NCBI GenBank assembly: GCA_964600615.1
Contig: CAZRJK010000008.1
Coordinates: 32-64,031 of the forward strand
Direction: 5' to 3'
DNA: 64,000 nt
DNA from: an uncultured Muribaculaceae bacterium
Lineage (GTDB): Bacteria > Bacillota_I > Bacilli_A > RF39 > UBA660
Shown: positions 24,195 through 39,454 of the stretch, one piece after another
Position numbering within the stretch: the first letter of the stretch is position 1
How the letters are laid out: the number at the start of each line of letters is the position of its first letter
Position numbers and translations under genes: made by a program
Notes under the pieces: model-generated
What the model was told of the DNA's origin: nothing
The model's database searches: none
The model's input: only the letters and a program-made list of their open reading frames with translations

Positions 24195-25334
24195 GTGAAT
24201 TTGTTTTTTTTGAATTTACTATCTGATGCGTGTAATGATGTTGGTGTTTTAAGAGTAATTTTATTTTTAAAGACGTTGTTACAGTATGTTTTTACTCTTG
24301 TTCCTGTTGCTGCAGTATTATGGTTGACTATTGATATGACTAAAAATGTTTTTTCGCAGGATGCGGATACACAAAGAAAAAATCTTGGAATGTTTGTAAG
24401 AAGATGTATTTATTTAATTATTGTTTTTTTAATTCCTACTATTGTTAATTTGACTTTATCTTTATTTGCTGAAGATATTGATACTAGTGAATATTCTAAA
24501 TGTATGAATGTTACTTCTGAGAGTATAAAAGTTTTATTAAAAAAGAATAAAGATGAGTGCAATCTTGATAATTACGAATGGGATGAAATTAATGGGCATT
24601 GTGTTTTTGTTGGTGAGAGTAGTGTGTTGCCTGAAGATTTTACGGTTATTGATGTAAATCCTAAAGCGGATGTTACTGAAAGTCCTGGTGGTATAAGGAG
24701 ATTAAATAGATCTTTTCCTAATTCTAAGTCTTCAACAATGATGGAATATACTCAAGGTGATGAAAGATGGGCTTATGATGGTTTTTGTGATGATAATGTA
24801 ACTAATATGGCTAGTTCTGGCTGTGGAGCTGCTGCATTTGCAATGATTGTTACAGGTTATGGTAATGATCCTAATGCGACTCCTAAGACAATTAGGGATT
24901 ATGTATGTAATAATGGTTTACATAGAAATTATGGTTTAGGTACAGATCCAATTCATAGTGAAAAACTTGTTGGCCATTTTGGTATGAAGGCAGAAGTATT
25001 ATGGGAAAGAGTTTATTCGAAAAATTATAGTCAGGAAAGAGCAAATCTAATCAAAGAAGCTGTTGATCAAGGTTATGGTGTTATTATAGATATTCCTAAC
25101 CATTGGGTTGCAGTTGATAAAGGTGGTTGTCCTGCTGATAAGGTTTATTACTATAATCCTAATGAAAAGTGGGAGAATGGTTGTGTTACTATGGAGAAGT
25201 TATGGGATATGACTTGGGATAGGAGAGAAAGATGTACTAATCCTAAACCACCACTTTATAATCCTAATAATTTGGAACAATATTGTGGTTGGAAGTATGC
25301 TTATAAATATTGGCCTGCTGATGATACTTATTAA
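24195..25334 (+). CDS. Membrane protein: conserved N-terminal 2-TM module + C39-like (papain-fold) cysteine peptidase domain
   Basis: The N-terminal ~105 aa align with the N-termini of the 35474 and 36657 products. C39_2-like motifs are QGDERW...SSGCGAAAFAMIV (Cys) and NHWVAVD (His). Confidence 0.75.
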   Translation: MNLFFLNLLSDACNDVGVLRVILFLKTLLQYVFTLVPVAAVLWLTIDMTKNVFSQDADTQRKNLGMFVRRCIYLIIVFLIPTIVNLTLSLFAEDIDTSEYSKCMNVTSESIKVLLKKNKDECNLDNYEWDEINGHCVFVGESSVLPEDFTVIDVNPKADVTESPGGIRRLNRSFPNSKSSTMMEYTQGDERWAYDGFCDDNVTNMASSGCGAAAFAMIVTGYGNDPNATPKTIRDYVCNNGLHRNYGLGTDPIHSEKLVGHFGMKAEVLWERVYSKNYSQERANLIKEAVDQGYGVIIDIPNHWVAVDKGGCPADKVYYYNPNEKWENGCVTMEKLWDMTWDRRERCTNPKPPLYNPNNLEQYCGWKYAYKYWPADDTY

Positions 25335-25355
25335 AATATATAATTGGAGGTATTT

Positions 25356-26090
25356 ATGAAAAAAAATATTTTATTATTGGTAATTTTAGCATTTTTTGTG
25401 ACTGGGTGTGGTTCATCTAAAATGGATGAATATGAGGTTGATTATAATTTAAAGATTAATGATGTTTTTTATGAGAGTATTACTGTAGCTTTACCTAAGG
25501 ATGCTTATGATATTGCTGGTAAGGATTCTAAGAAAAACGAGAATTATAATTCTTTGGAATATTCTTTATTAAAATCAGATATTAATCCTATTTTTTCTAA
25601 TTATGATGAATTATATAGAAAAGAAATAAATAAGTATAATAATATGGTAGAGGTTAATTTAAAATATAATTATCCTGAAAAATATTATGTTTATAATAAT
25701 TTTATTACATCTTGTTTTTCTAATTATGATTTAATAAGTAGTGATGATAATTTTGAGATAAAATTAAGTGGAGCCTTTATATGTGGTAACAAGATAGAAA
25801 AATTGAATATAAGTGTAACTAGTAATTATGATGTTTTAGAATCAAATGGTAAAAAAGATGGTAAAACTTATACTTGGTCTATTGGTAAAAAGGATTTTGA
25901 AAAGATTGATATTGATTATAAGATTTCTAGAAAATATAGTAAGATGGCTAAGGAAGCAGTTAATGGTAAAGGAAATGATAAACGTGCTACTACTATTAGG
26001 AATTTAAGAATTGTGACTTTTGTTATTATGATTATTGTTATTATTGCTTTTTCAGTTAGGTTTTATTTTATGAAAAAAGATTTAGAATAA
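25356..26090 (+). CDS. Lipoprotein with an additional C-terminal TM anchor
   Basis: MKKNILLLVILAFFVTGC lipobox; C-terminal hydrophobic helix VTFVIMIIVIIAFSV. ATG 25356 follows SD ggagg. Confidence 0.75.
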   Translation: MKKNILLLVILAFFVTGCGSSKMDEYEVDYNLKINDVFYESITVALPKDAYDIAGKDSKKNENYNSLEYSLLKSDINPIFSNYDELYRKEINKYNNMVEVNLKYNYPEKYYVYNNFITSCFSNYDLISSDDNFEIKLSGAFICGNKIEKLNISVTSNYDVLESNGKKDGKTYTWSIGKKDFEKIDIDYKISRKYSKMAKEAVNGKGNDKRATTIRNLRIVTFVIMIIVIIAFSVRFYFMKKDLE

Positions 26091-30560: not shown

Positions 30561-31673
30561 ATGAAAAAGAATATACCTATTACTTTACTTACAGGATATT
30601 TAGGTAGTGGTAAGACTACTTTAATTAATCATATTTTAAAGAATAATAATGATAAAAAGATTGCTATTATAGTTAATGATATTGGCACTGTTAATATAGA
30701 TGCTTCTTTAATTGAAAAAGATGGTATTGTTTCTAAGAAAGATGAATCTTTAGTAGCTTTATCTAATGGATGTATTTGTTGTAATCTTAAGATGGATTTA
30801 GTAGAACAAATATTTGAAATTATTAAGCAAGATAAATTTGATCATATAATAATAGAAGCTAGTGGAATATGTGAACCTATTCCTATCGCGCAGACTATTT
30901 CGATGATTAACGAGATGTATAATATGAATTTGTGTTATATTGATAGTATTGTTACTGTTACGGATGCTTTAAGACTTGCTTCGGAATTTAATTGTGGAGA
31001 ATATTTAATTAAAGATGATATTAAGGATGATGATTTAGAAAAGTTAATTATTGAACAATTAGAGTTTTGTAATATAATTATTTTAAATAAAGTTAGTGAA
31101 TTAGATGATGATTCTCGTAATGAGGTTAAGGGTATTATTAGGGAGATACAACCTAAGGCTAAATTAATTGAAGCTAATTATGCAGAAGTTGATGTTGATG
31201 AAATATTAGATACACATTTGTTTGATTTTGGAGAAGCTTCTATGTCTGCAGGATGGATTAAAGCTTTAGATAATGTAGAAGAGGAAGAAGATTCTTCTGA
31301 AGTATTAGAATATGGAATAGAAACTTTTGTATATTATAGAAGGAAACCTTTTGATAGAAGTAAGTTTTATAATTTTTTAGATAGTATATGGGATAAATCT
31401 ATTATTAGGACTAAAGGGGTAGTTTATTTTAGTGATGAAGTAAATATGGCTTATATGTTTGAATCTGCAGGTAATAGTAAGAATTTAGTACCTACTGGTC
31501 CTTGGATATCTGATTTAAGTAAAGAAGAACAACAATCTATTATTATAGCTAATCCTGATATTATGGATGAATGGGATCCAGAGTATGGTGATAAGATGAT
31601 TAAGATTGTTATTATTGGTAAAAATATTGATAAGGAAAATCTTATTAATAAATTAGATAGTTTTATGATATAA
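30561..31673 (+). CDS. COG0523-family GTPase metallochaperone (CobW/ZigA/YciC-like)
   Basis: P-loop GYLGSGKTT, GCICCN (CxCC) metal motif, and a CobW C-terminal domain. Confidence 0.85.
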   Translation: MKKNIPITLLTGYLGSGKTTLINHILKNNNDKKIAIIVNDIGTVNIDASLIEKDGIVSKKDESLVALSNGCICCNLKMDLVEQIFEIIKQDKFDHIIIEASGICEPIPIAQTISMINEMYNMNLCYIDSIVTVTDALRLASEFNCGEYLIKDDIKDDDLEKLIIEQLEFCNIIILNKVSELDDDSRNEVKGIIREIQPKAKLIEANYAEVDVDEILDTHLFDFGEASMSAGWIKALDNVEEEEDSSEVLEYGIETFVYYRRKPFDRSKFYNFLDSIWDKSIIRTKGVVYFSDEVNMAYMFESAGNSKNLVPTGPWISDLSKEEQQSIIIANPDIMDEWDPEYGDKMIKIVIIGKNIDKENLINKLDSFMI

Positions 31674-31696
31674 TTAAATGGATTAATCCATTTAAT

Positions 31697-31773
<77 letters not shown>

Positions 31774-31782
31774 TAAAAAAAT

Positions 31783-31809: not shown

Positions 31810-33024
31810 TTATTTTATATAATTTTTTAGTTCTTTTATACTTTTATTATTTCTTGCTTGGTTTTTTATTTTTCTTAAAGCTTTTTTTTCTATTGCGTTT
31901 ATTCTTTGGTGACTAATATTATATATTTTACTAATTTCTTTAGTAGTGTATTGCTTGTTATTCTCAGTTCCTATACCAAATCTTAATTTTAGTATATTGA
32001 TTTCTCTTTCTGATAAATAATCAAAGACTATTTTTATTTCGTCCTTTAATTCATTTTTTATTATATAATCTTCTATATTAGTATTTTTATCTTCTATAAA
32101 ATCTTCTAGAGTAGTATTTTCTCCTGGTTCATTTTTTTCTTTTATATTTGCGTTTAGTGATAGAGTTTTATTATATTGTAAATATTTTGTTATTGTATTA
32201 TAATTCATATTAAATATTTGAATTAGTTCTAATGCAGTATATTTTTTGTTGTTTTCTTTTTCTAATTGTTCTACTTGTTTTCTAAATTTTTTAATATTAT
32301 ATATTTCATTTTGGTTGACTGTTATATTATCATTATATTTATATGTATATACTGTTATTGCTTGTCTTATCCAGTGAGTGGCATAAGTAGAAAATTTGTA
32401 TCCTTTTTTTATATCAAATTTTTCTATTGCACGCATTAATGCTATATTTCCTTCATTTATTAAATCCATAATATCATTTTCTTTAGTTTTATATTTTTTG
32501 GCTATATATACTACTAATTTAAGATTGGCATTAATTAATTCTTTTCTAGCATTTAGATATTCTAAATATAGTTTAAGGTTTTCAAGTAATAATTTTTTTT
32601 CTATTATTGGTTCATCTTCATAATTAATTTTATATTTATCTATTAATACTTTTTTATCATCATTGTTTTCAATATTTAGAATGTATTCATTTATATTTAT
32701 TTTTGTTTGATAATTTAAGGCATTTTTTACTAATTTTATTAATTCTTTATCGTTTCTATATGTAATTAAATTCTTTGTTAGTAATGGTATATTTAGTGGT
32801 TTTATATTTTGTCCTTTTAAGGCTATTATACAGTCATTACTTTTTAATATTGTTTTAGCTAATTCTTGTTCTTCTTCTATTGTTAATAAAGGTATTGGTT
32901 TTATTTCTGCTATGTATGATTTAAAATTATCTTTAATAAAATCATTATCTTCTTTTATATTATTTGAGAAGTATTCTATTATTTCTTCTTTTTTTATTTC
33001 TTCTTCTAGTATTTCTTGTTTCAT
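31810..33024 (-). CDS. Sigma-70 family sigma factor, RpoD-like architecture with a divergent region 2.4-3 and an insertion between regions 1.2 and 2
   Basis: DLINEGNIALMRAIEKFDIKKGYKFSTYATHWIRQAIT (region 2); region 4 ISKIYNISHQRINAIEKKALRKIK. Confidence 0.85.
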   Translation of the reverse strand: MKQEILEEEIKKEEIIEYFSNNIKEDNDFIKDNFKSYIAEIKPIPLLTIEEEQELAKTILKSNDCIIALKGQNIKPLNIPLLTKNLITYRNDKELIKLVKNALNYQTKININEYILNIENNDDKKVLIDKYKINYEDEPIIEKKLLLENLKLYLEYLNARKELINANLKLVVYIAKKYKTKENDIMDLINEGNIALMRAIEKFDIKKGYKFSTYATHWIRQAITVYTYKYNDNITVNQNEIYNIKKFRKQVEQLEKENNKKYTALELIQIFNMNYNTITKYLQYNKTLSLNANIKEKNEPGENTTLEDFIEDKNTNIEDYIIKNELKDEIKIVFDYLSEREINILKLRFGIGTENNKQYTTKEISKIYNISHQRINAIEKKALRKIKNQARNNKSIKELKNYIK

Positions 33025-33164
33025 AGTTTTCCCCCTTTAAACGTTTTAATATTTTAACATATATGTAACAATTTTGCAAGTGGTGTATTATTTTGACCTT
33101 TATGTTGTAAGTTTGTTTAAACTATGGTATACTAATCAATGGTAATATGGTAGGAGGTATGTAT

Positions 33165-34142
33165 ATGTTTTGTCCTAAATGTGGTGAGCATAATGCTGAG
33201 GGGTCTGGTTTTTGTACTAAGTGTGGCAATAATCTTAGTAATGTTTTAAATAATGAATCTGTTCAAAATGTAGATTCTACTAATTTGGCAACTGATAATG
33301 ATAATTCTAGTGTTAGTAGTGAACCTATACAAAGTAATGTTAATCATGATATGAATGATAACAAGAAATCTAATCTTATACCAATTATTGTTATAGTTTT
33401 AGTTGTTGCTGCTGGTATTTTTTTTGGTATTAGTAAATTAGTGAAAAAAGATAATTCTAGTACTAACAGTGATATGAAGCAAAATACTAGTAGTGAGGTT
33501 GATACTAATGTAGATAATGATAGTTCTAATAGTAATCAATCTACTATTGATGGTTCTACTGATACGACTTATGATAAAAATGGTGACTTTTTAATGTCTG
33601 TTGAGGATGTTTTTTCTATTTCTGGAAAAGGAACTGTTGCTACTGGTAGAGTTTTGAGGGGAACTGTTAAGGTTGGCGATAAGGTTCAAGTTATTGGGCT
33701 TGATCATGAAATTATAACTACTGAAGTTGTAGATATACAAGCTTTTAGGCAATCTATGGAATATGCGGATGCTGGTAATGATGCTGGTTTATATTTGAAA
33801 GATGTTGAAAGAGATGATGTTGTAAGAGGGCAAGTTCTTGCTAAACCTAATTCGATTAAAGCTTATAAAAAGTTTGATGCAGATATATATTTTTATTCTA
33901 CTAAGGAAGGTGGTAGGGCTACAGCATTTTTTGCTAATTATAGACCACAATTTTGTTTTAGAACGGCTGTGATTGCTGGTGGCATTACTTTACCTAGTGG
34001 TGTTGAAATGGTAAATCCTGGAACTAATATAAAATTAACAGTAGAATTAGAAGTTGATGTTGCTATGGAAGTTGGAGATATATTTGATGTTAGAGATACT
34101 GGTAGAACCGCTGGCAAAGGTACTGTTACAAAGATATATTAA
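33165..34142 (+). CDS. Zinc-ribbon + single TM + EF-Tu domain II/III protein (no GTPase domain)
   Basis: N-terminal CPKCG...CTKCG, [20 protein letters not shown], and an S/N/D-rich linker. The C-terminal ~185 aa are collinear with EF-Tu domains II-III ([22 protein letters not shown]...RGQVLAKP...YRPQFCFRT...[12 protein letters not shown]). Start is at ATG 33165, 7 nt after AGGAGG. Confidence 0.85.
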   Translation: [325 protein letters not shown]

Positions 34143-34210: not shown

Positions 34211-35398
34211 ATGAGATGTGTAGGTACTGTTGTTAGGGGTATTAGAACTCCTATAGTTAAAGAGGGGGATGATTTAGCTTCTATTGTTGTTGATTCAGTT
34301 ATGAAAGCTAAAGAGAGTGAAGGGTTTGAATTTAGGGATAGAGATATAGTTGCTATTACGGAAGCTGTAGTTGGTATTAGTGAGGGTAATTATGTTACGG
34401 TTGATGATATTGCTACTGATTTAAAGAATAAATTTCCTAGTGGTGATATTGGAGTAGTTTTTCCAATATTAAGTCGTAATAGATTTTCTATGATATTAAA
34501 GGGAATTGCTAGGGGAATGAAGAAAGTTACTATGTTATTATCTTTTCCTTCTGATGAGGTTGGTAATGGTATCTTAGATGAGGACAAATTACGTAGTAGT
34601 AAGTTTAATTTATCTAGTGTTATTAGTGAAGATGAGTATAAGGAATATTTTGGAGATTATTTACATCCTTTTACTGGTATAAATATGGTTGATTTTTATA
34701 GAGAATTAATTAAAAATGAGGATTGTGAAGTAGAATTTGTATTTGCTAATGATCCTACAGTTATTCTTAATTATACTAAGGATGTTCTTAGTTGTGATAT
34801 TCATACTAGATTACATACTAAGAGTGTCTTAGAAGAAGCAGGAGCTAATAGTGTATATGGTTTATATGAAGTAATGACTGAGAGTATTAATGGTAGTGGA
34901 TGTAATCCTAGTTATGGACTTTTGGGTTCTAATAAATCTACTGAAGAGAGATTAAAATTATTTCCTAAGACTGGTGATAAGTTAGTTTTAGATATTCAAA
35001 ATAGATTAAAGGAAGCTACTGGTAAGACTATTGAGGTTATGGTATATGGTGATGGAGCGTTTAAGGATCCTGTTGGTCATATTTGGGAGCTTGCTGATCC
35101 TGTTGTAAGTCCTGCTCATACTAGTGGATTAGATGGTACTCCTAATGAAATAAAATTAAAATATGTTTCTGATAATAAGTTTGCTGATTTATCTGGTGAT
35201 GAGTTAAAAGAAGCTATTAAGGATGAAATTAGAAATAAAGATGCTGATTTAAAAGGAAAGATGATTACACAAGGAACTACTCCTAGAAGACTTACTGATT
35301 TGATTGGTTCTTTATGTGATTTAACTAGTGGTAGTGGAGATAAGGGAACACCAGTAGTATTTATTCAAGGATATTTTGATAATTTAGCTGATGATTAA
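34211..35398 (+). CDS. CofE-like (F420-0:gamma-glutamyl ligase family) protein
   Basis: The N-terminal RTPIVKEGDDLASIV and DRDIVAITEAVVGISEG parallel the CofE pattern (PLIK.GDDLAELI / GD.LVV..T..SKAEGR). Confidence 0.6.
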   Translation: MRCVGTVVRGIRTPIVKEGDDLASIVVDSVMKAKESEGFEFRDRDIVAITEAVVGISEGNYVTVDDIATDLKNKFPSGDIGVVFPILSRNRFSMILKGIARGMKKVTMLLSFPSDEVGNGILDEDKLRSSKFNLSSVISEDEYKEYFGDYLHPFTGINMVDFYRELIKNEDCEVEFVFANDPTVILNYTKDVLSCDIHTRLHTKSVLEEAGANSVYGLYEVMTESINGSGCNPSYGLLGSNKSTEERLKLFPKTGDKLVLDIQNRLKEATGKTIEVMVYGDGAFKDPVGHIWELADPVVSPAHTSGLDGTPNEIKLKYVSDNKFADLSGDELKEAIKDEIRNKDADLKGKMITQGTTPRRLTDLIGSLCDLTSGSGDKGTPVVFIQGYFDNLADD

Positions 35399-35422
35399 AA
35401 GAGAGGTTCTCTCTTTTTTTCT
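35398..35422 (+). terminator. Rho-independent terminator
   Basis: aagagag-gtt-ctctctt followed by a T run. Confidence 0.65.
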
Positions 35423-35473
35423 TGTTTTATTTTATTTGTGATGGTATAATTTATTTAGATATGAGGGATATAG

Positions 35474-36592
35474 ATGTTAGTTGGTATTTGTGAGAATCCT
35501 TTTGTTTTGAAAATTTTATTATTTATTGGGAAGCTTGTTAAGATTTGTTATTTGGTTATTCCTATTGGATTAGTAATTTTTTTTAGTTTTGATTTTTTTA
35601 AAGGAATTATTAATCAGGAAGAAGCTGATAAACAAATTGTTTTTTCATTGAAAAAAATAATTAATGTTGTTGCTTTGTTTTTGGTTCCTACATTTGTTAG
35701 TATTTTTATGAAATTTATTAGTAATATAGAATTTTTAGATATTAATTATAAAACTTGTTTAGCTAATACTTCTAATATTACTTATTATGAGGAAAAGTAT
35801 GAATCTTTAATTAAATTAGAAGAAGAAAAAAGAGCAGAAGAAATAGAAAAGCAATTAGCCGATTATGAGTATTATAAAACACTTGATAGAAGGAAAAAAA
35901 TGTTTGTTAAATATAATGAGAAGAAAGATAACAATGGTGGAAATAATACTGGAGGCAATACTTATGATCCTAGTGCTGTTTTTACTGGACAAACATATAG
36001 TTTAAGTGCTGATGAATTAAAAAACATAACTGCTGTATGTATTGGTGAACAGGGAGCATATGTTGATGGTGTTTCTTCGGAAGCTTCTTTTATGGCTAAT
36101 ACTTATGAAGCTAAATATTCTAATAAATTTTCAACGATTTCAAGCTGGGTACTTGATACTGGGGATGGACATTATTTTGATACTCGTTCTTATGAAAATG
36201 GTTTACCCCAAGTTACTGATGAGTTGATTAATGCGGTTAAAGAAGTTTTAGTTAATGGTAATAGGACTTTACCTTTATATGTTGATGATCATGATTGTTG
36301 GTTTTGTTCTGATCATTATGATAGGAATCATAATCCACTTTATTGCCATAATGGTAATAAGGGTGATATATGTTATTTAAATAATGGTGGTTCTGATTTA
36401 TCTAGTAAGGATGAGATTACTAATAGAGATAATTATATAAAGGATAAGACTAAAATATATACTTATTATAAGCAAGATCATAGTGATGATTTGGATAAGT
36501 ACTTTATTTTTTATGCTTGGGCTAGACCTACTACGAAGGGTGGGGATCCTTTTGGGTATACTGAAGATACTTATAAGCGTATAAATGGTTAG
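35474..36592 (+). CDS. Membrane protein: conserved N-terminal 2-TM module + coiled linker + Cys/His-rich C-terminal domain (paralog A)
   Basis: Same N-terminal module as the 24195 product. The C-terminal domain has GEQG...EASFMANTYE and LVNGNRTLPLYVDDHDCWFC motifs shared with paralog B. Confidence 0.8.
   Translation: MLVGICENPFVLKILLFIGKLVKICYLVIPIGLVIFFSFDFFKGIINQEEADKQIVFSLKKIINVVALFLVPTFVSIFMKFISNIEFLDINYKTCLANTSNITYYEEKYESLIKLEEEKRAEEIEKQLADYEYYKTLDRRKKMFVKYNEKKDNNGGNNTGGNTYDPSAVFTGQTYSLSADELKNITAVCIGEQGAYVDGVSSEASFMANTYEAKYSNKFSTISSWVLDTGDGHYFDTRSYENGLPQVTDELINAVKEVLVNGNRTLPLYVDDHDCWFCSDHYDRNHNPLYCHNGNKGDICYLNNGGSDLSSKDEITNRDNYIKDKTKIYTYYKQDHSDDLDKYFIFYAWARPTTKGGDPFGYTEDTYKRING
35822..35986 (+). 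repeat. Near-identical block shared with 37009-37173 (linker region of the tandem paralogs)
   Basis: Hand alignment gives roughly 155/165 identical, including a 68-nt perfect run (gattatgagtattataaaacacttgatagaaggaaaaaaatgtttgttaaatataatgagaagaaaga). The flanking parts of the genes are clearly more diverged. Confidence 0.85.
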
Positions 36593-36656
36593 TATAGTTT
36601 TTGTTTAAATTTTTTTAATTGTGTGTTATAATTTTTTTGGATAGTGAGGGATAAAT

Positions 36657-37757
36657 ATGATTGTTGGTGCTTGTGAAAATCCTTTTGTTTTAAAGATTTT
36701 GTTATTTATGGGAAAAATTGTTGAGGTTTGTTATTTGATTATTCCTATTGGTTTGATTCTTTTTATGAGTATTGATTTTTTTAAGGCAATTATTAATAAA
36801 GAAGAAGAAGGAACTAAGAATGTTATTTTTTCTTTTAAGAGAATTGTTAACGTTGTTGCTTTATTTTTGGTTCCTACTTTTATAAGCTTTTTTATGGATT
36901 TTGTTAGTAATTTAGATTTGTTTAATGGAGATTATGCTTCTTGTTTAGCTAATACTTCTAGTGTTACTTATTATCAAGAGAAGTATGATGCCTTGGTTAA
37001 ACAAGAGGAAGAAAAAAGAGCAAAAGAGATAGAAAAGCAATTAGCTGATTATGAGTATTATAAAACACTTGATAGAAGGAAAAAAATGTTTGTTAAATAT
37101 AATGAGAAGAAAGACAACGATGGTGGCAATAATACTGGAGGCAATACTTATAATCCTGATGCTGTTTTTACGGGCCAAACTTATAATTTAACTGATGAAC
37201 AGGTAAAGAGATTAGCTGCTATATGTTATGGTGAAAAAGGAAATAATGTAAAGGCAGTAGCTGCAGAGGCTACAATGATGGCCAATATATACGAGGATCG
37301 TGGGAATAAGAATTATTCTTTATATGATTGGGCTCTTCTACCAGTTGGCGATGGTGGTTGGTATGCTTCAAGCAGTAGGGATAGTAGTAATATAGCTAAA
37401 GTTACTGATGAGTTATTTAATGCGGTTAAAGATGTTTTAGTTAATGGTAATAGGACTTTGCCTTTATATATAGATGATCATGATTGTTTGTTTTGCGATG
37501 ATTCCACTTGTTCAAATGGTAATAGGGGCGATGTATGTTATTTAGATACTAATGGGACTATTTTTTCTGATGAATCTCAATTAAAGGATAGATATAATTC
37601 AACTATCTATATTCCTAATAAGACAAAAGTATATACTCTTAGTAAGTTGAGAAATAGTGTTGCTAGTGAGCGATATTTTGTATTTTATACTTTTGTATCT
37701 GATAATAGTGGTCCTGTTGGGTATACTGAGAAGAGTTATAAAAGAGTAAATGGTTAG
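36657..37757 (+). CDS. Membrane protein, tandem paralog B of the 35474 gene
   Basis: Collinear with paralog A over its whole length; similar promoter/SD context (tataat...gtgagggata). Confidence 0.8.
   Translation: MIVGACENPFVLKILLFMGKIVEVCYLIIPIGLILFMSIDFFKAIINKEEEGTKNVIFSFKRIVNVVALFLVPTFISFFMDFVSNLDLFNGDYASCLANTSSVTYYQEKYDALVKQEEEKRAKEIEKQLADYEYYKTLDRRKKMFVKYNEKKDNDGGNNTGGNTYNPDAVFTGQTYNLTDEQVKRLAAICYGEKGNNVKAVAAEATMMANIYEDRGNKNYSLYDWALLPVGDGGWYASSSRDSSNIAKVTDELFNAVKDVLVNGNRTLPLYIDDHDCLFCDDSTCSNGNRGDVCYLDTNGTIFSDESQLKDRYNSTIYIPNKTKVYTLSKLRNSVASERYFVFYTFVSDNSGPVGYTEKSYKRVNG
37009..37173 (+). repeat. Second copy of the near-identical paralog block (see 35822-35986)
   Basis: Direct comparison of the two gene sequences. 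Confidence 0.85.
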
Positions 37758-37766
37758 AGGTGTGTT

Positions 37767-38375
37767 ATGATACAGAATATAAAAGAAAAGTTATATAGAT
37801 TTACTTCTAGTAATAAATTATTTGTTGTTTCTATTATTTTATTTATTTTATTAATTGTTTTTTCAATTTATAATAATAAAAGGTCTAATGAGAGATTTGT
37901 GGATTATATTACTAAATTAGGTTATTATAATGAAGATGGTGGTAATTTATATTATTATAATGTTGGAGGTATTTCTTTAGAAGATTTTAATGATGATGTT
38001 GCTAATGGTCTTGATTCTCATTATGAGATTAATTATTTTGATGTTAACGAGGTTTTATTTAAAAAGAATTTTAGAGATTATACTGATAAGATGAATACGC
38101 TTTTAAATTTTACTTATGATTATAAGAGTGGCGTTGTTACTTACTCTTATAGAGGTGTTTCTAATAATGAAGCTGTTTTAATGTTTAGTGGAGAGTATTC
38201 ATATAAGGATGATGCTTTTGATTTTTCTTGTAATAAGGATTATAGATATCAATATGATGTAGATTCTAATGATGATTTGGTTTGTACTTTTCTTAAGGGA
38301 AAGGTTGAAAATTTTTATGTTGAGGCTATTAATGTTATAGAGAAGTATTCTGTTGTTGATAATGTAATTAAATAA
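37767..38375 (+). CDS. Hypothetical N-terminally anchored membrane protein, translationally close to paralog B
   Basis: One TM (LFVVSIILFILLIVFSIY) and a 9-nt gap after the 36657 gene. No recognisable motif. Confidence 0.65.
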   Translation: MIQNIKEKLYRFTSSNKLFVVSIILFILLIVFSIYNNKRSNERFVDYITKLGYYNEDGGNLYYYNVGGISLEDFNDDVANGLDSHYEINYFDVNEVLFKKNFRDYTDKMNTLLNFTYDYKSGVVTYSYRGVSNNEAVLMFSGEYSYKDDAFDFSCNKDYRYQYDVDSNDDLVCTFLKGKVENFYVEAINVIEKYSVVDNVIK

Positions 38376-38817: not shown

Positions 38818-38872
38818 TTGCTTTTTTTCTTTATTTGTGCTATTATATAAGTCGTTTTGGGGAGGTAATATT

Positions 38873-39454
38873 ATGAGTTGTCCATATTATTCATTTAAGA
38901 GTGGTTTATTGTTCGGTGGAGATTACTTTTGTGATGTAAAAAAAATAAGTGTTGATTCTTCACAATACAATACATATTGTAGGGGATATAATTACTCTAA
39001 TTGTGTAATATATAAATCAAAAAATGGATCTTCTAGTGGTTGTTTTATTACAACTGTAGTTCGTGATATTTTAGGAAAAGAAGATAATGATGTTTTACTT
39101 AATAATTTTAGATGTTTTAGAGATAATATTTTACATTGTGATGAAAAATATAATGAATTATTACAGGATTATGATAATATTGGTCCTAGAATAGCTGATG
39201 CTATATGGACTGATAAGGATGCTGTAAAGATGGCTAATGGTATTTATAATATTTCTTTATTACCAATTAATGAAATGATTAAGAATAAGGAATATGATAA
39301 AGCTTGTGAAAAATACTATTTACTTACTCTTTCATTAATTAATTATTATGGTTTAAAACATGATTATAATTTTGATAAAGATAATGGTTTATATGAAAAA
39401 GATTTTGATGCTAAAGTATCTGGACATGGAAGAAGATTAATTAAAGAATGTTAA
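38873..39454 (+). CDS. Cysteine-rich hypothetical protein (CPYY...C...C...C N-terminus, then the SGCFITT...FRCFRDN motif)
   Basis: ATG 38873 follows SD ggggagg. The motif layout recalls a conserved uncharacterised family, but I cannot name it. Confidence 0.6.
   Translation: MSCPYYSFKSGLLFGGDYFCDVKKISVDSSQYNTYCRGYNYSNCVIYKSKNGSSSGCFITTVVRDILGKEDNDVLLNNFRCFRDNILHCDEKYNELLQDYDNIGPRIADAIWTDKDAVKMANGIYNISLLPINEMIKNKEYDKACEKYYLLTLSLINYYGLKHDYNFDKDNGLYEKDFDAKVSGHGRRLIKEC

Follow-up and report, generated by a model that had tools for sequence, protein, structure and literature searches.

What is the function of two adjacent paralogous genes and a third gene for a small membrane protein, which are located between positions 35474 and 38375 of a 64,000-nucleotide stretch of DNA from an uncultured Muribaculaceae bacterium (contig CAZRJK010000008.1; GTDB lineage RF39, UBA660)? 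The whole stretch is referred to as the window in the following. The original prediction for this locus, made from the letters of the DNA without database searches, had described two enzymes consisting of a module with two transmembrane helices and a C-terminal domain of about 200 amino acids (aa), followed by a membrane protein, and had compared them to effector/immunity or hydrolase/inhibitor cassettes. The three genes were found with the sizes and positions given there, including the gap of 9 nt between the stop of paralog 2 and the start of the downstream gene, which is termed class A partner gene here:

35474-36592, plus strand: paralog 1, open reading frame (ORF) of 372 aa
35474-35773, plus strand: anchor of paralog 1 (aa 1 to ~100) with Cys6, a first transmembrane helix (~9-40), a K/R-rich loop, a second transmembrane helix (~59-83) and Cys95
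35969-36589, plus strand: putative SleB-like catalytic domain of paralog 1 (aa ~166-372)
36657-37757, plus strand: paralog 2, ORF of 366 aa
37767-38375, plus strand: class A partner gene, ORF of 202 aa

The favoured answer, to which a probability of about 55% is assigned, is that the paralogs are membrane-tethered, SleB-like wall-cleaving enzymes, which remodel the wall of their own cell together with a co-transcribed membrane partner, and that parts of them are common to type IV secretion systems (T4SS) of the conjugation type.

Domain organization of the enzyme family

Aligned from end to end, the two paralogs show 58% identity (E 8e-151), and they possess the same architecture. The anchor is followed by a charged helical linker and a spacer rich in glycine and asparagine (G/N spacer; together aa ~100-165 in paralog 1) and finally by the catalytic domain. 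A search of 5.8 billion proteins yielded only 28 clusters with this full architecture, which originate from uncultured gut and rumen metagenome-assembled genomes (MAGs) labelled Bacilli, Erysipelotrichaceae or Clostridia. None of the 28 clusters carries a name or a Pfam domain. Likewise, no source contained a name for any of ten proteins checked, comprising three members of the enzyme family, five multidomain proteins and two partners.

In the alignment of the 28 members, the N-terminal module showed the invariant residues Cys6, Pro30, Asp40, Phe69, Pro72 and Cys95, and the charged linker was poorly conserved. In the catalytic domain E192, E203, A208, N209, G262, R264, T265, P267, H273, D274, D298, P359 and G361 were invariant. 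The seven motifs listed in the original prediction occur in both paralogs, and most of them correspond to invariant or nearly invariant columns of this alignment. The HD motif is followed by a loop with four cysteine residues (C275, C278, C291 and C300), which is absent en bloc from several members, including the enzyme of locus L012. The loop is therefore an optional insertion and not part of the domain core, and the earlier label of a Cys/His-rich domain describes a dispensable element.

In a subfamily encoded at L014 (171-1169) and L015 (4425-5516), the anchor is retained, as is the SleB-like helical half of the domain, which includes the GEYG, MAN and NGNRTLPLYIDEFD motifs. The half with the HD motif, the Cys loop and the DPFGY motif is exchanged for a different C-terminal segment, and the partner is a lipoprotein of another class (class B, see below).

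Resemblance of the catalytic domain to SleB

The AlphaFold (AF2) model of the catalytic domain, calculated with 24 sequences, showed a mean predicted local distance difference test score (pLDDT) of 87.9 and a predicted template modelling score (pTM) of 0.86. It consists of five helices, which are followed by a small sheet. When the model was compared to the PDB with Foldseek, the sole sensible match was SleB (4fet_A; template modelling score 0.58, normalised to the target; root-mean-square deviation 3.8 Å; 102 columns). Of the top 27 matches in BFVD, a collection of structures predicted for viral proteins, about 20 were SleB-type cell-wall hydrolases or spore-cortex lytic transglycosylases, with probabilities up to 1.0. 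The structural matches to SleB cover only the N-terminal, helical half of the domain.

The same relationship was observed when alignments were compared by hhalign. A Hydrolase_2 profile, built from CwlJ homologs and the SleB sequence of 4F55, was used against a domain alignment of 167 sequences, and 90 columns were aligned collinearly (P 0.0087). The score of 22.6 was higher than those of all 150 column shuffles (mean 13.1, standard deviation 2.8, maximum 22.4). In an earlier comparison to a narrow profile of CwlJ sequences only, merely 11 columns had been aligned. In the longer alignment, E192 is paired with the first Glu of YGESRGE, N209 with the N of LNR, and NGNRTLP with NGxxxWP. Thus, the order of the motifs is collinear with that of SleB/CwlJ (PF07486; 4F55, 4FET), with a hydrophobic helix carrying GE-x-G...A-x3-N and then NG-x3-P. 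The invariant E192 takes the place of the conserved Glu in the helix motif Y-G-E-x-R-G-E. The aligned Glu of SleB is residue 151 of the Bacillus anthracis enzyme (chain numbering of 4F55), which we take to be the catalytic residue published by Jing et al. (2012). SleB possesses one essential catalytic glutamate (PMC12331253, PMC11148199).

Judged from the predicted model, SleB and CwlJ appear to be distantly related to the helical half of the catalytic domain, which provides the only coherent structural matches for the domain of the window. Formal membership of PF07486 (Hydrolase_2) is not indicated by the sequences, as neither of the paralogs, nor the isolated domain at E up to 10, nor any of the 28 members matched this family. 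The earlier suspicion of a loose similarity to SleB/CwlJ-type hydrolases is therefore tentatively supported at the level of the fold by 4fet, BFVD and hhalign, and not at the level of the family. The domain probably cleaves the glycan strands of peptidoglycan.

There are also clear differences from SleB and CwlJ. The C-terminal half of the domain in the window is about 90 aa longer and beta-rich, with the invariant H273-D274, D298 and DPFGY and the optional four-Cys loop. Furthermore, the enzymes of the window use a hairpin of two transmembrane helices and a coiled coil instead of a signal peptide and a peptidoglycan-binding domain, and a link to spores is not evident for them.

The catalytic domain is distributed much more widely than the full architecture. 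With a profile of the domain, 774 proteins were detected at E ≤ 1e-3 and 310 at E ≤ 1e-30 among 1.84 billion representatives; the 774 representatives stand for clusters at 50% identity. Many of them have lengths of 600-1600 aa and carry the domain in the middle of the protein. Eight of ten long representatives tested possess additional domains of the types M23, Phage_lysozyme2, NlpC/P60, Glucosaminidase, Peptidase_C39_2, CHAP, SpoIID, ELLD or Amidase_5. All of these are classical domains of peptidoglycan hydrolases, and this company suggests that the domain is active on the cell wall.

The N-terminal anchor and its relation to type IV secretion systems

According to a simple hydropathy scale, which was used instead of a dedicated topology predictor, the paralogs have hydrophobic segments at ~9-40 and ~59-83, with four K/R residues in the loop between them and none at the N-terminus. 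This pattern fits a hairpin with both ends outside and the loop in the cytoplasm. The invariant residues Cys6 and Cys95 would then be neighbours on the outside of the membrane, where they might form a disulfide.

A profile of the first ~100 residues of the family matched the ORF at 24195 (E 8e-23) and had no further match in the window, as had been expected from the original prediction of a common module in these genes. When the anchors were compared to Pfam, 12 of the 28 members matched PF18895 (T4SS_pilin) at E ≤ 5, with a best E of 0.0014, and no other family was matched by the anchors of more than three members. The protein encoded at 24195 matched PF18895 with E 1.1. In addition, the T4SS cluster L026 begins with a gene that has the anchor module at its end, with both Cys residues kept. 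The anchor is thus weakly pilin-like and has relatives in T4SS, below the threshold of the family. Like pilins of the VirB2/TrbC type, it comprises about 100 aa with two transmembrane helices and a short positive loop. In contrast to a free pilin, it serves as the N-terminal anchor of an enzyme, and an invariant Cys pair flanks the hairpin.

The catalytic domain also occurs in T4SS clusters. In four loci, of which L018 and L026 belong to Bacilli MAGs and L016 and L025 to Saccharibacteria, the gene for a large multidomain protein with this domain immediately follows that for a VirB4-like ATPase:

L016, 3805-7227: multidomain protein with the catalytic domain, adjoining a VirB4-like ATPase
L025, 5761-8391: multidomain protein with the catalytic domain, adjoining a VirB4-like ATPase
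L018, 4057-8031: multidomain protein with the catalytic domain, adjoining a VirB4-like ATPase and also upstream of the VirD4 coupling protein
L026, 5314-8604: multidomain protein with the catalytic domain and a C39_2 domain, adjoining a VirB4-like ATPase

This is the position taken by the VirB1-type wall hydrolase in T4SS of monoderm bacteria, and in Saccharibacteria hydrolase homologues are reported to lie immediately downstream of virB4 (PMC12102498). The four multidomain proteins are therefore candidates for the VirB1 analogue of their T4SS. The proteins of the window share with VirB1-type hydrolases such as PrgK of pCF10, TraG of pIP501 and CwlT of ICEBs1 the N-terminal membrane anchor, and their catalytic domain recurs in the multidomain hydrolases of 600-1600 aa (with M23, CHAP, NlpC/P60 or lysozyme domains) downstream of VirB4-like ATPases. 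They differ from them in being short and chromosomally encoded, with a single catalytic domain that is not of the SLT, CHAP or NlpC/P60 type, without an adjoining T4SS gene and with a dedicated partner.

These similarities raise the question whether the cassette is a remnant or satellite of a T4SS, in which a pilin-like protein fused to a VirB1-type hydrolase serves a secretion system whose genes lie at another site of the genome. In related MAGs, both modules are present in T4SS clusters (an anchor-like gene, VirB4 and the hydrolase in L026; VirB4, the hydrolase and VirD4 in L018), and the weak matches of the anchor to PF18895 point in the same direction. However, homologs of VirB4 or VirD4 were not detected in the window by tblastn with T4SS proteins, and no full-length member of the enzyme family adjoins VirB4 in the window or in the loci of its relatives. 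Moreover, the pair is surrounded by housekeeping genes in several neighbourhoods that are unrelated to each other, its synteny is conserved within the clade, and it is accompanied by a dedicated partner family that was not detected in T4SS loci. A satellite role is therefore considered unlikely. By tblastn, the catalytic domain of the window showed no match in 72,556 plasmids or 50,697 phages, and the copy of L018 showed none in the same 72,556 plasmids.

The membrane partner follows the anchor

As stated in the original prediction, the third gene encodes a protein with one N-terminal transmembrane helix, according to hydropathy. A positively charged N-terminus, predicted to be cytoplasmic, precedes this helix (~18-36), and an ectodomain follows. 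In the predicted structure (pLDDT 88), a long helix comprising the transmembrane segment and a stalk leads to an antiparallel sheet of 6-7 strands, on which a long C-terminal helix is packed. G52, Y117, G142, Y144, C155 and C173 are invariant. Searches of Pfam and NCBIfam with the class A partner gave nothing significant, and PepSY was not found. In the Foldseek results, the immunity protein TipC2 appeared at rank 34 with a probability of 0.15 and was discounted as evidence.

The class A family comprises 28 clusters, a number equal to that of the enzyme family. A class A gene immediately follows a member of the enzyme family in at least 12 distinct loci, several of which have otherwise unrelated neighbourhoods (the window, L036, L001/L002/L003/L010, L004/L005, L006, L007 with a split gene, L008, L009, L011, L012 with two copies, L033 and L034). 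In GCA_016648615.1 the class A partner was assigned by size and position. The expectation that the downstream gene is conserved together with the enzymes was thus confirmed. At L006 (404-7940), the enzyme/partner pair is immediately preceded by three tandem paralogs of the YfhO family with 830-834 aa each.

The combinations of partners and enzymes are informative with regard to the function of the partner:

24195-25334, plus strand: anchor with a Peptidase_C39_2-like domain (Pfam E 0.017, below threshold)
25344-26090, plus strand: class B partner, a lipoprotein with a C-terminal transmembrane helix, homologous to the genes downstream of the L013-L015 enzymes
L012, 4869-7528: tandem cassette of a Bacilli MAG, encoding a 156-aa protein of anchor and stalk only, a class A partner, a 331-aa enzyme without Cys loop and a second class A partner

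SleB-like enzymes of L013, L014 and L015 are followed by a class B lipoprotein and not by a class A partner. Since class A occurs behind a protein consisting of the anchor only (L012) and class B behind both C39-like and SleB-like enzymes, the partner tracks the anchor and not the catalytic domain. A protein that scaffolds, stabilises or regulates at the membrane is therefore more likely than an immunity protein that is specific for an active site. The possibility of a hydrolase with a small membrane regulator, which the original prediction had mentioned as an alternative, therefore remains plausible.

A comparable arrangement is known from the sleB-ypeB operon, in which the gene of the enzyme is followed by the gene of an N-terminally membrane-anchored partner (PMC12331253). 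The same order is found in the window; the partner encoded there, however, is a small sheet-plus-helix protein without PepSY domains. By analogy, the data favour a membrane regulator or scaffold, which might functionally correspond to YpeB for SleB (PMC12331253).

This analogy could also be taken literally, so that the paralogs would be membrane-anchored SleB/CwlJ analogues degrading the spore cortex during sporulation or germination, with the partner in the role of YpeB. The fold resembling SleB, the operon recalling sleB-ypeB (PMC12331253) and a SpoIIM gene in the neighbourhood of L006 would be in accordance with such a function. However, the catalytic domain is common among Saccharibacteria and T4SS hydrolases, which are unrelated to spores, the partner is devoid of PepSY domains, and no sporulation genes were noted beside the cassette in the window. 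A role in spores is thus improbable.

Duplication and evolution of the paralogs

The tandem pair was confirmed in the independent assemblies L035 and L036 of the same species, of which L036 is a 16-kb contig from another sample. In L008, L033, L034 and GCA_016648615.1 the synteny F420-ligase-like gene/enzyme/partner/tadA/Zip/PBP5 is conserved, with one enzyme and one partner each. The tandem duplication is thus restricted to this species, in which it may be polymorphic.

The identity of the paralogs is distributed unevenly. The anchors are 65% identical at the amino acid level, the catalytic domains only 50% (number of synonymous substitutions per site, dS, ~1 or saturated), and the linker between aa 121 and 165 shows 97% identity at the nucleotide level (dS ~0.14):

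35834-35968, plus strand: homogenised linker of paralog 1 (aa 121-165)
37020-37154, plus strand: counterpart in paralog 2

This stretch is a tract of gene conversion or recombination. The catalytic domain of paralog 1 is nearer to the copies of other species (up to 66% identity) than to paralog 2, whose domain is about equidistant from every other member (44-54%). Paralog 2 is changed at nearly invariant positions (Q193K, D358G and F360V) and retains the putative catalytic residues. These comparisons indicate that the duplication is old or arose by recombination and that the linker has been homogenised since then.

A single hybrid gene was detected in L031 (2320-3417) and L032 (2177-3274), which belong to the same species and are 99.5% identical upstream. 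Its first ~420 nt are identical to paralog 1, and its last ~680 nt match paralog 2 save one or two mismatches. It thus combines the anchor of paralog 1 with the catalytic domain of paralog 2, and the crossover is located within or beside the homogenised linker. The two paralogs share exact matches of up to 68 nt, and the hybrid is either a real deletion allele or the result of an assembly collapse. A survey of the copy number, as suggested along with the original prediction, therefore revealed possible variation within this species and single copies in its relatives.

The ratio of nonsynonymous to synonymous substitutions (dN/dS) was ~0.47 for the whole gene (pairwise NG86). A few scattered windows of 30 codons showed values of ~1, with saturated dS in the most variable stretch; these are not evidence of positive selection. 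Considering also the single-copy state of the relatives, a diversification of the tandem enzymes is not shown.

These data also bear on the effector/immunity cassette proposed originally, in which diversifying wall-degrading toxins would be delivered to competitors and the 202-aa protein would shield the wall of the producer. A wall-active domain followed by a small extracytoplasmic membrane protein is the usual layout of such cassettes, and an effector with SleB fold of a type VI secretion system, together with its immunity protein, has been described (PMC11148199). Furthermore, the evolution of enzyme and partner is much more rapid than that of the flanking genes, and the copy number varies. 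On the other hand, no delivery domain (LXG, WXG, PAAR, Rhs etc.) and no secretion genes were found when the cassette genes, the 24195 pair and several neighbours were compared to Pfam and NCBIfam and the window was searched by tblastn with T4SS proteins; the original prediction had likewise noted that secretion-system genes are missing. The conserved two-helix anchor and its paired outer Cys residues should keep the enzyme in the membrane of the producer, the locus occupies a syntenic position among housekeeping genes with single copies in the relatives, and one partner is shared by two enzymes with 50% identity in the catalytic domain. In addition, partners of both classes accompany an anchor-only protein or a different catalytic domain, and the dN/dS is ~0.47. 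Because of the missing delivery system, the anchor, the housekeeping synteny and the partner tracking the anchor, a role in competition is improbable and the effector/immunity interpretation is not supported.

Proposed function of the cassette

According to the favoured explanation, the paralogs would cleave peptidoglycan glycan strands in an uncultured, very AT-rich Bacilli lineage of the gut. They would be held in the membrane by a hairpin of two transmembrane helices, similar to VirB2 or T4SS pilins, with both termini outside and an invariant Cys on each outer end, and the catalytic domain would be carried by the charged helical stalk and the flexible G/N spacer. The helical half of this domain would have a distant SleB/CwlJ (Hydrolase_2) fold with the invariant Glu192 as the acid catalyst, and the beta-rich half, which appears to be specific for the lineage, would bear the HD, D298 and DPFGY motifs. 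The single-pass partner would reside at the outer face of the membrane, next to the anchor or the stalk. There it might stabilise, position or restrain the enzyme in the manner of YpeB for SleB, rather than act as an antidote specific for the active site. The cassette would then represent a chromosomal, vertically inherited function in wall remodelling. Its anchor and catalytic modules would be common to T4SS clusters of the conjugation type, in which the hydrolase would be the VirB1 analogue, and its duplication, which is confined to the species, would be continually reshaped by recombination through the homogenised linker. Of these points, the architecture, the conservation, the neighbouring domains, the gene contexts and the resemblance of the fold were observed; the enzymatic activity, the catalytic residue, the topology and the role of the partner are inferred from them.

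MltG, SpoIID/SpoIIP/SpoIIM and CwlO-FtsEX are similar with regard to a wall-cleaving domain held at the membrane, a membrane partner encoded nearby and a chromosomal housekeeping setting. The anchor, the catalytic domain and the partner of the window are unrelated to them in sequence, and the resemblance would be a functional one only. An anchored wall hydrolase with a regulator is a familiar kind of function.

Several observations weigh against this explanation. The catalytic domain gave nothing significant in Pfam or NCBIfam, either for both paralogs or for the isolated domains, and a profile search against the PDB sequences yielded zero matches at E ≤ 10. The structural match to 4fet is weak (E ~1, probability 0.63), and the SleB-type matches in BFVD have E values between 2e-3 and 0.3. 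Thus the Foldseek comparison, which had been suggested together with the original prediction, returned SleB-type proteins as the only coherent matches, with weak E values. The probability given by hhalign was only 4.6%. The beta-rich C-terminal half with the invariant HD, D298 and DPFGY is without a known counterpart, and the chemistry could therefore differ from that of a lytic transglycosylase. The matches relating the anchor to pilins are all below the gathering score of PF18895 (26.6 bits). For the model of the partner, Foldseek found no significant match in the PDB and only weak helix-grip/START-like and miscellaneous ones (E ≥ 0.05). Finally, the identity to the orthologs is 45-54% for enzyme and partner, compared to 83-88% for the F420-ligase-like protein and 60-68% for tadA, Zip and PBP5. 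Enzyme and partner are thus the fastest-evolving genes of the syntenic block, except for a gene with a CFI-box-like product in two of three loci. Fast evolution is expected for surface proteins, and it leaves some room for evolution driven by conflict.

A more far-reaching version of the favoured explanation assumes a genuine VirB2-type pilin anchor, which assembles by itself and forms, together with the dedicated partners, a machine derived from T4SS and independent of them. An oligomeric platform in the membrane would then present wall-cutting heads on coiled-coil stalks and serve as the main device for wall remodelling or cell separation in this uncultured Bacilli lineage, and recombination in the linker would shuffle anchors and catalytic heads between the tandem copies. 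Taken as a whole, this combination is quite unlikely and is put forward as speculation.

Class II holins possess two transmembrane helices, and the nearest structural neighbours of the catalytic domain are cell-wall hydrolases of phages; nevertheless, a prophage lysis module, in which a holin-like hairpin is fused to a SleB-type endolysin and the downstream protein is a spanin- or antiholin-like accessory, is very improbable, as no phage genes are located nearby, the 50,697 phage records gave no tblastn match, the locus is syntenic and conserved across species, and neither the coiled-coil stalk nor the conserved outer Cys pair is a feature of holins.

Expression signals and genomic surroundings

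The signals upstream of the paralogs and the boundary of the cassette are as follows:

35397-35417, plus strand: terminator-like hairpin with T-run, which ends the upstream F420-ligase-like gene and forms the 5' boundary of the cassette
35442-35450, plus strand: extended -10 element TGgTATAAT of paralog 1 (hexamer 35445-35450), a consensus match only
35463-35467, plus strand: GAGGG Shine-Dalgarno sequence of paralog 1, a consensus match only
36624-36632, plus strand: extended -10 element TGtTATAAT of paralog 2 (hexamer 36627-36632), a sequence feature
36646-36650, plus strand: GAGGG Shine-Dalgarno sequence of paralog 2, a sequence feature

The tataat motif and the Shine-Dalgarno sequence described originally in front of each paralog are therefore present. 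The identical layout of -10 element and GAGGG indicates that the duplication carried the expression signals along. In this AT-rich DNA, 13 promoter-like sites were found, compared to 23 expected from shuffled sequences. As such sites are not enriched, the elements of both paralogs are regarded as sequence features only. No convincing terminator was found between paralog 1 and paralog 2, and the class A partner gene has its own AGAGG Shine-Dalgarno sequence.

Beside the cassette, the window encodes housekeeping proteins, namely the F420-ligase-like protein, TadA, a ZIP transporter, a PBP5-type carboxypeptidase, GluRS and formate-tetrahydrofolate ligase. The G+C content is 20-33%, and nearly all genes lie on the plus strand. 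The GC skew is strongly positive (0.2-0.57) over all 64 kb. The strong skew, the low G+C content and the strand bias suggest one replichore of a very AT-rich genome. In the stretches listed between ~21 and 41 kb, the sole sizeable gene on the minus strand is a sigma-70-type gene (31810-33024). The one tRNA gene of the window, tRNA-Arg(CCU), is located at 31697-31773, and an antisense ORF overlapping it (31451-31774) is probably spurious.

Two further proteins were observed close to the cassette. The gene at 33147-34142 encodes a fusion of an N-terminal zinc ribbon, a low-complexity region, one transmembrane helix and domains 2 and 3 of EF-Tu, the GTPase domain being absent. L036 likewise contains this unusual fusion, and the gene called there has 405 aa. 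The CFI-box-like gene mentioned above (38837-39454) encodes a Cys-rich protein of 205 aa, which matched NF041770 (CFI-box-CTERM) below threshold (E 1.6e-6; 27.8 bits compared to the cut-off of 40). It is syntenic and fast-evolving, with 33-72% identity in the relatives.

Implications

The family of the catalytic domain, its fusion to a pilin-like hairpin and the partner families that track the anchor are undescribed in the libraries and literature searched. With its 774 clusters, the catalytic domain constitutes a sizeable family that is missed by current domain libraries, and naming it would lead to a better annotation of many MAGs. In connection with the more far-reaching version given above, it would define a large, undescribed branch of the SleB superfamily, which would act as the VirB1 analogue in Saccharibacteria and gut Firmicutes. 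The missing VirB1-like hydrolase is a gap noted in the literature for such T4SS (PMC12102498), and in some clusters of Saccharibacteria and gut Firmicutes the catalytic domain appears to fill this position beside VirB4. For the bacterium investigated here, the fusion to a pilin-like hairpin and the partner following the anchor suggest that parts of a conjugation machinery have been taken over for housekeeping remodelling of the cell wall.

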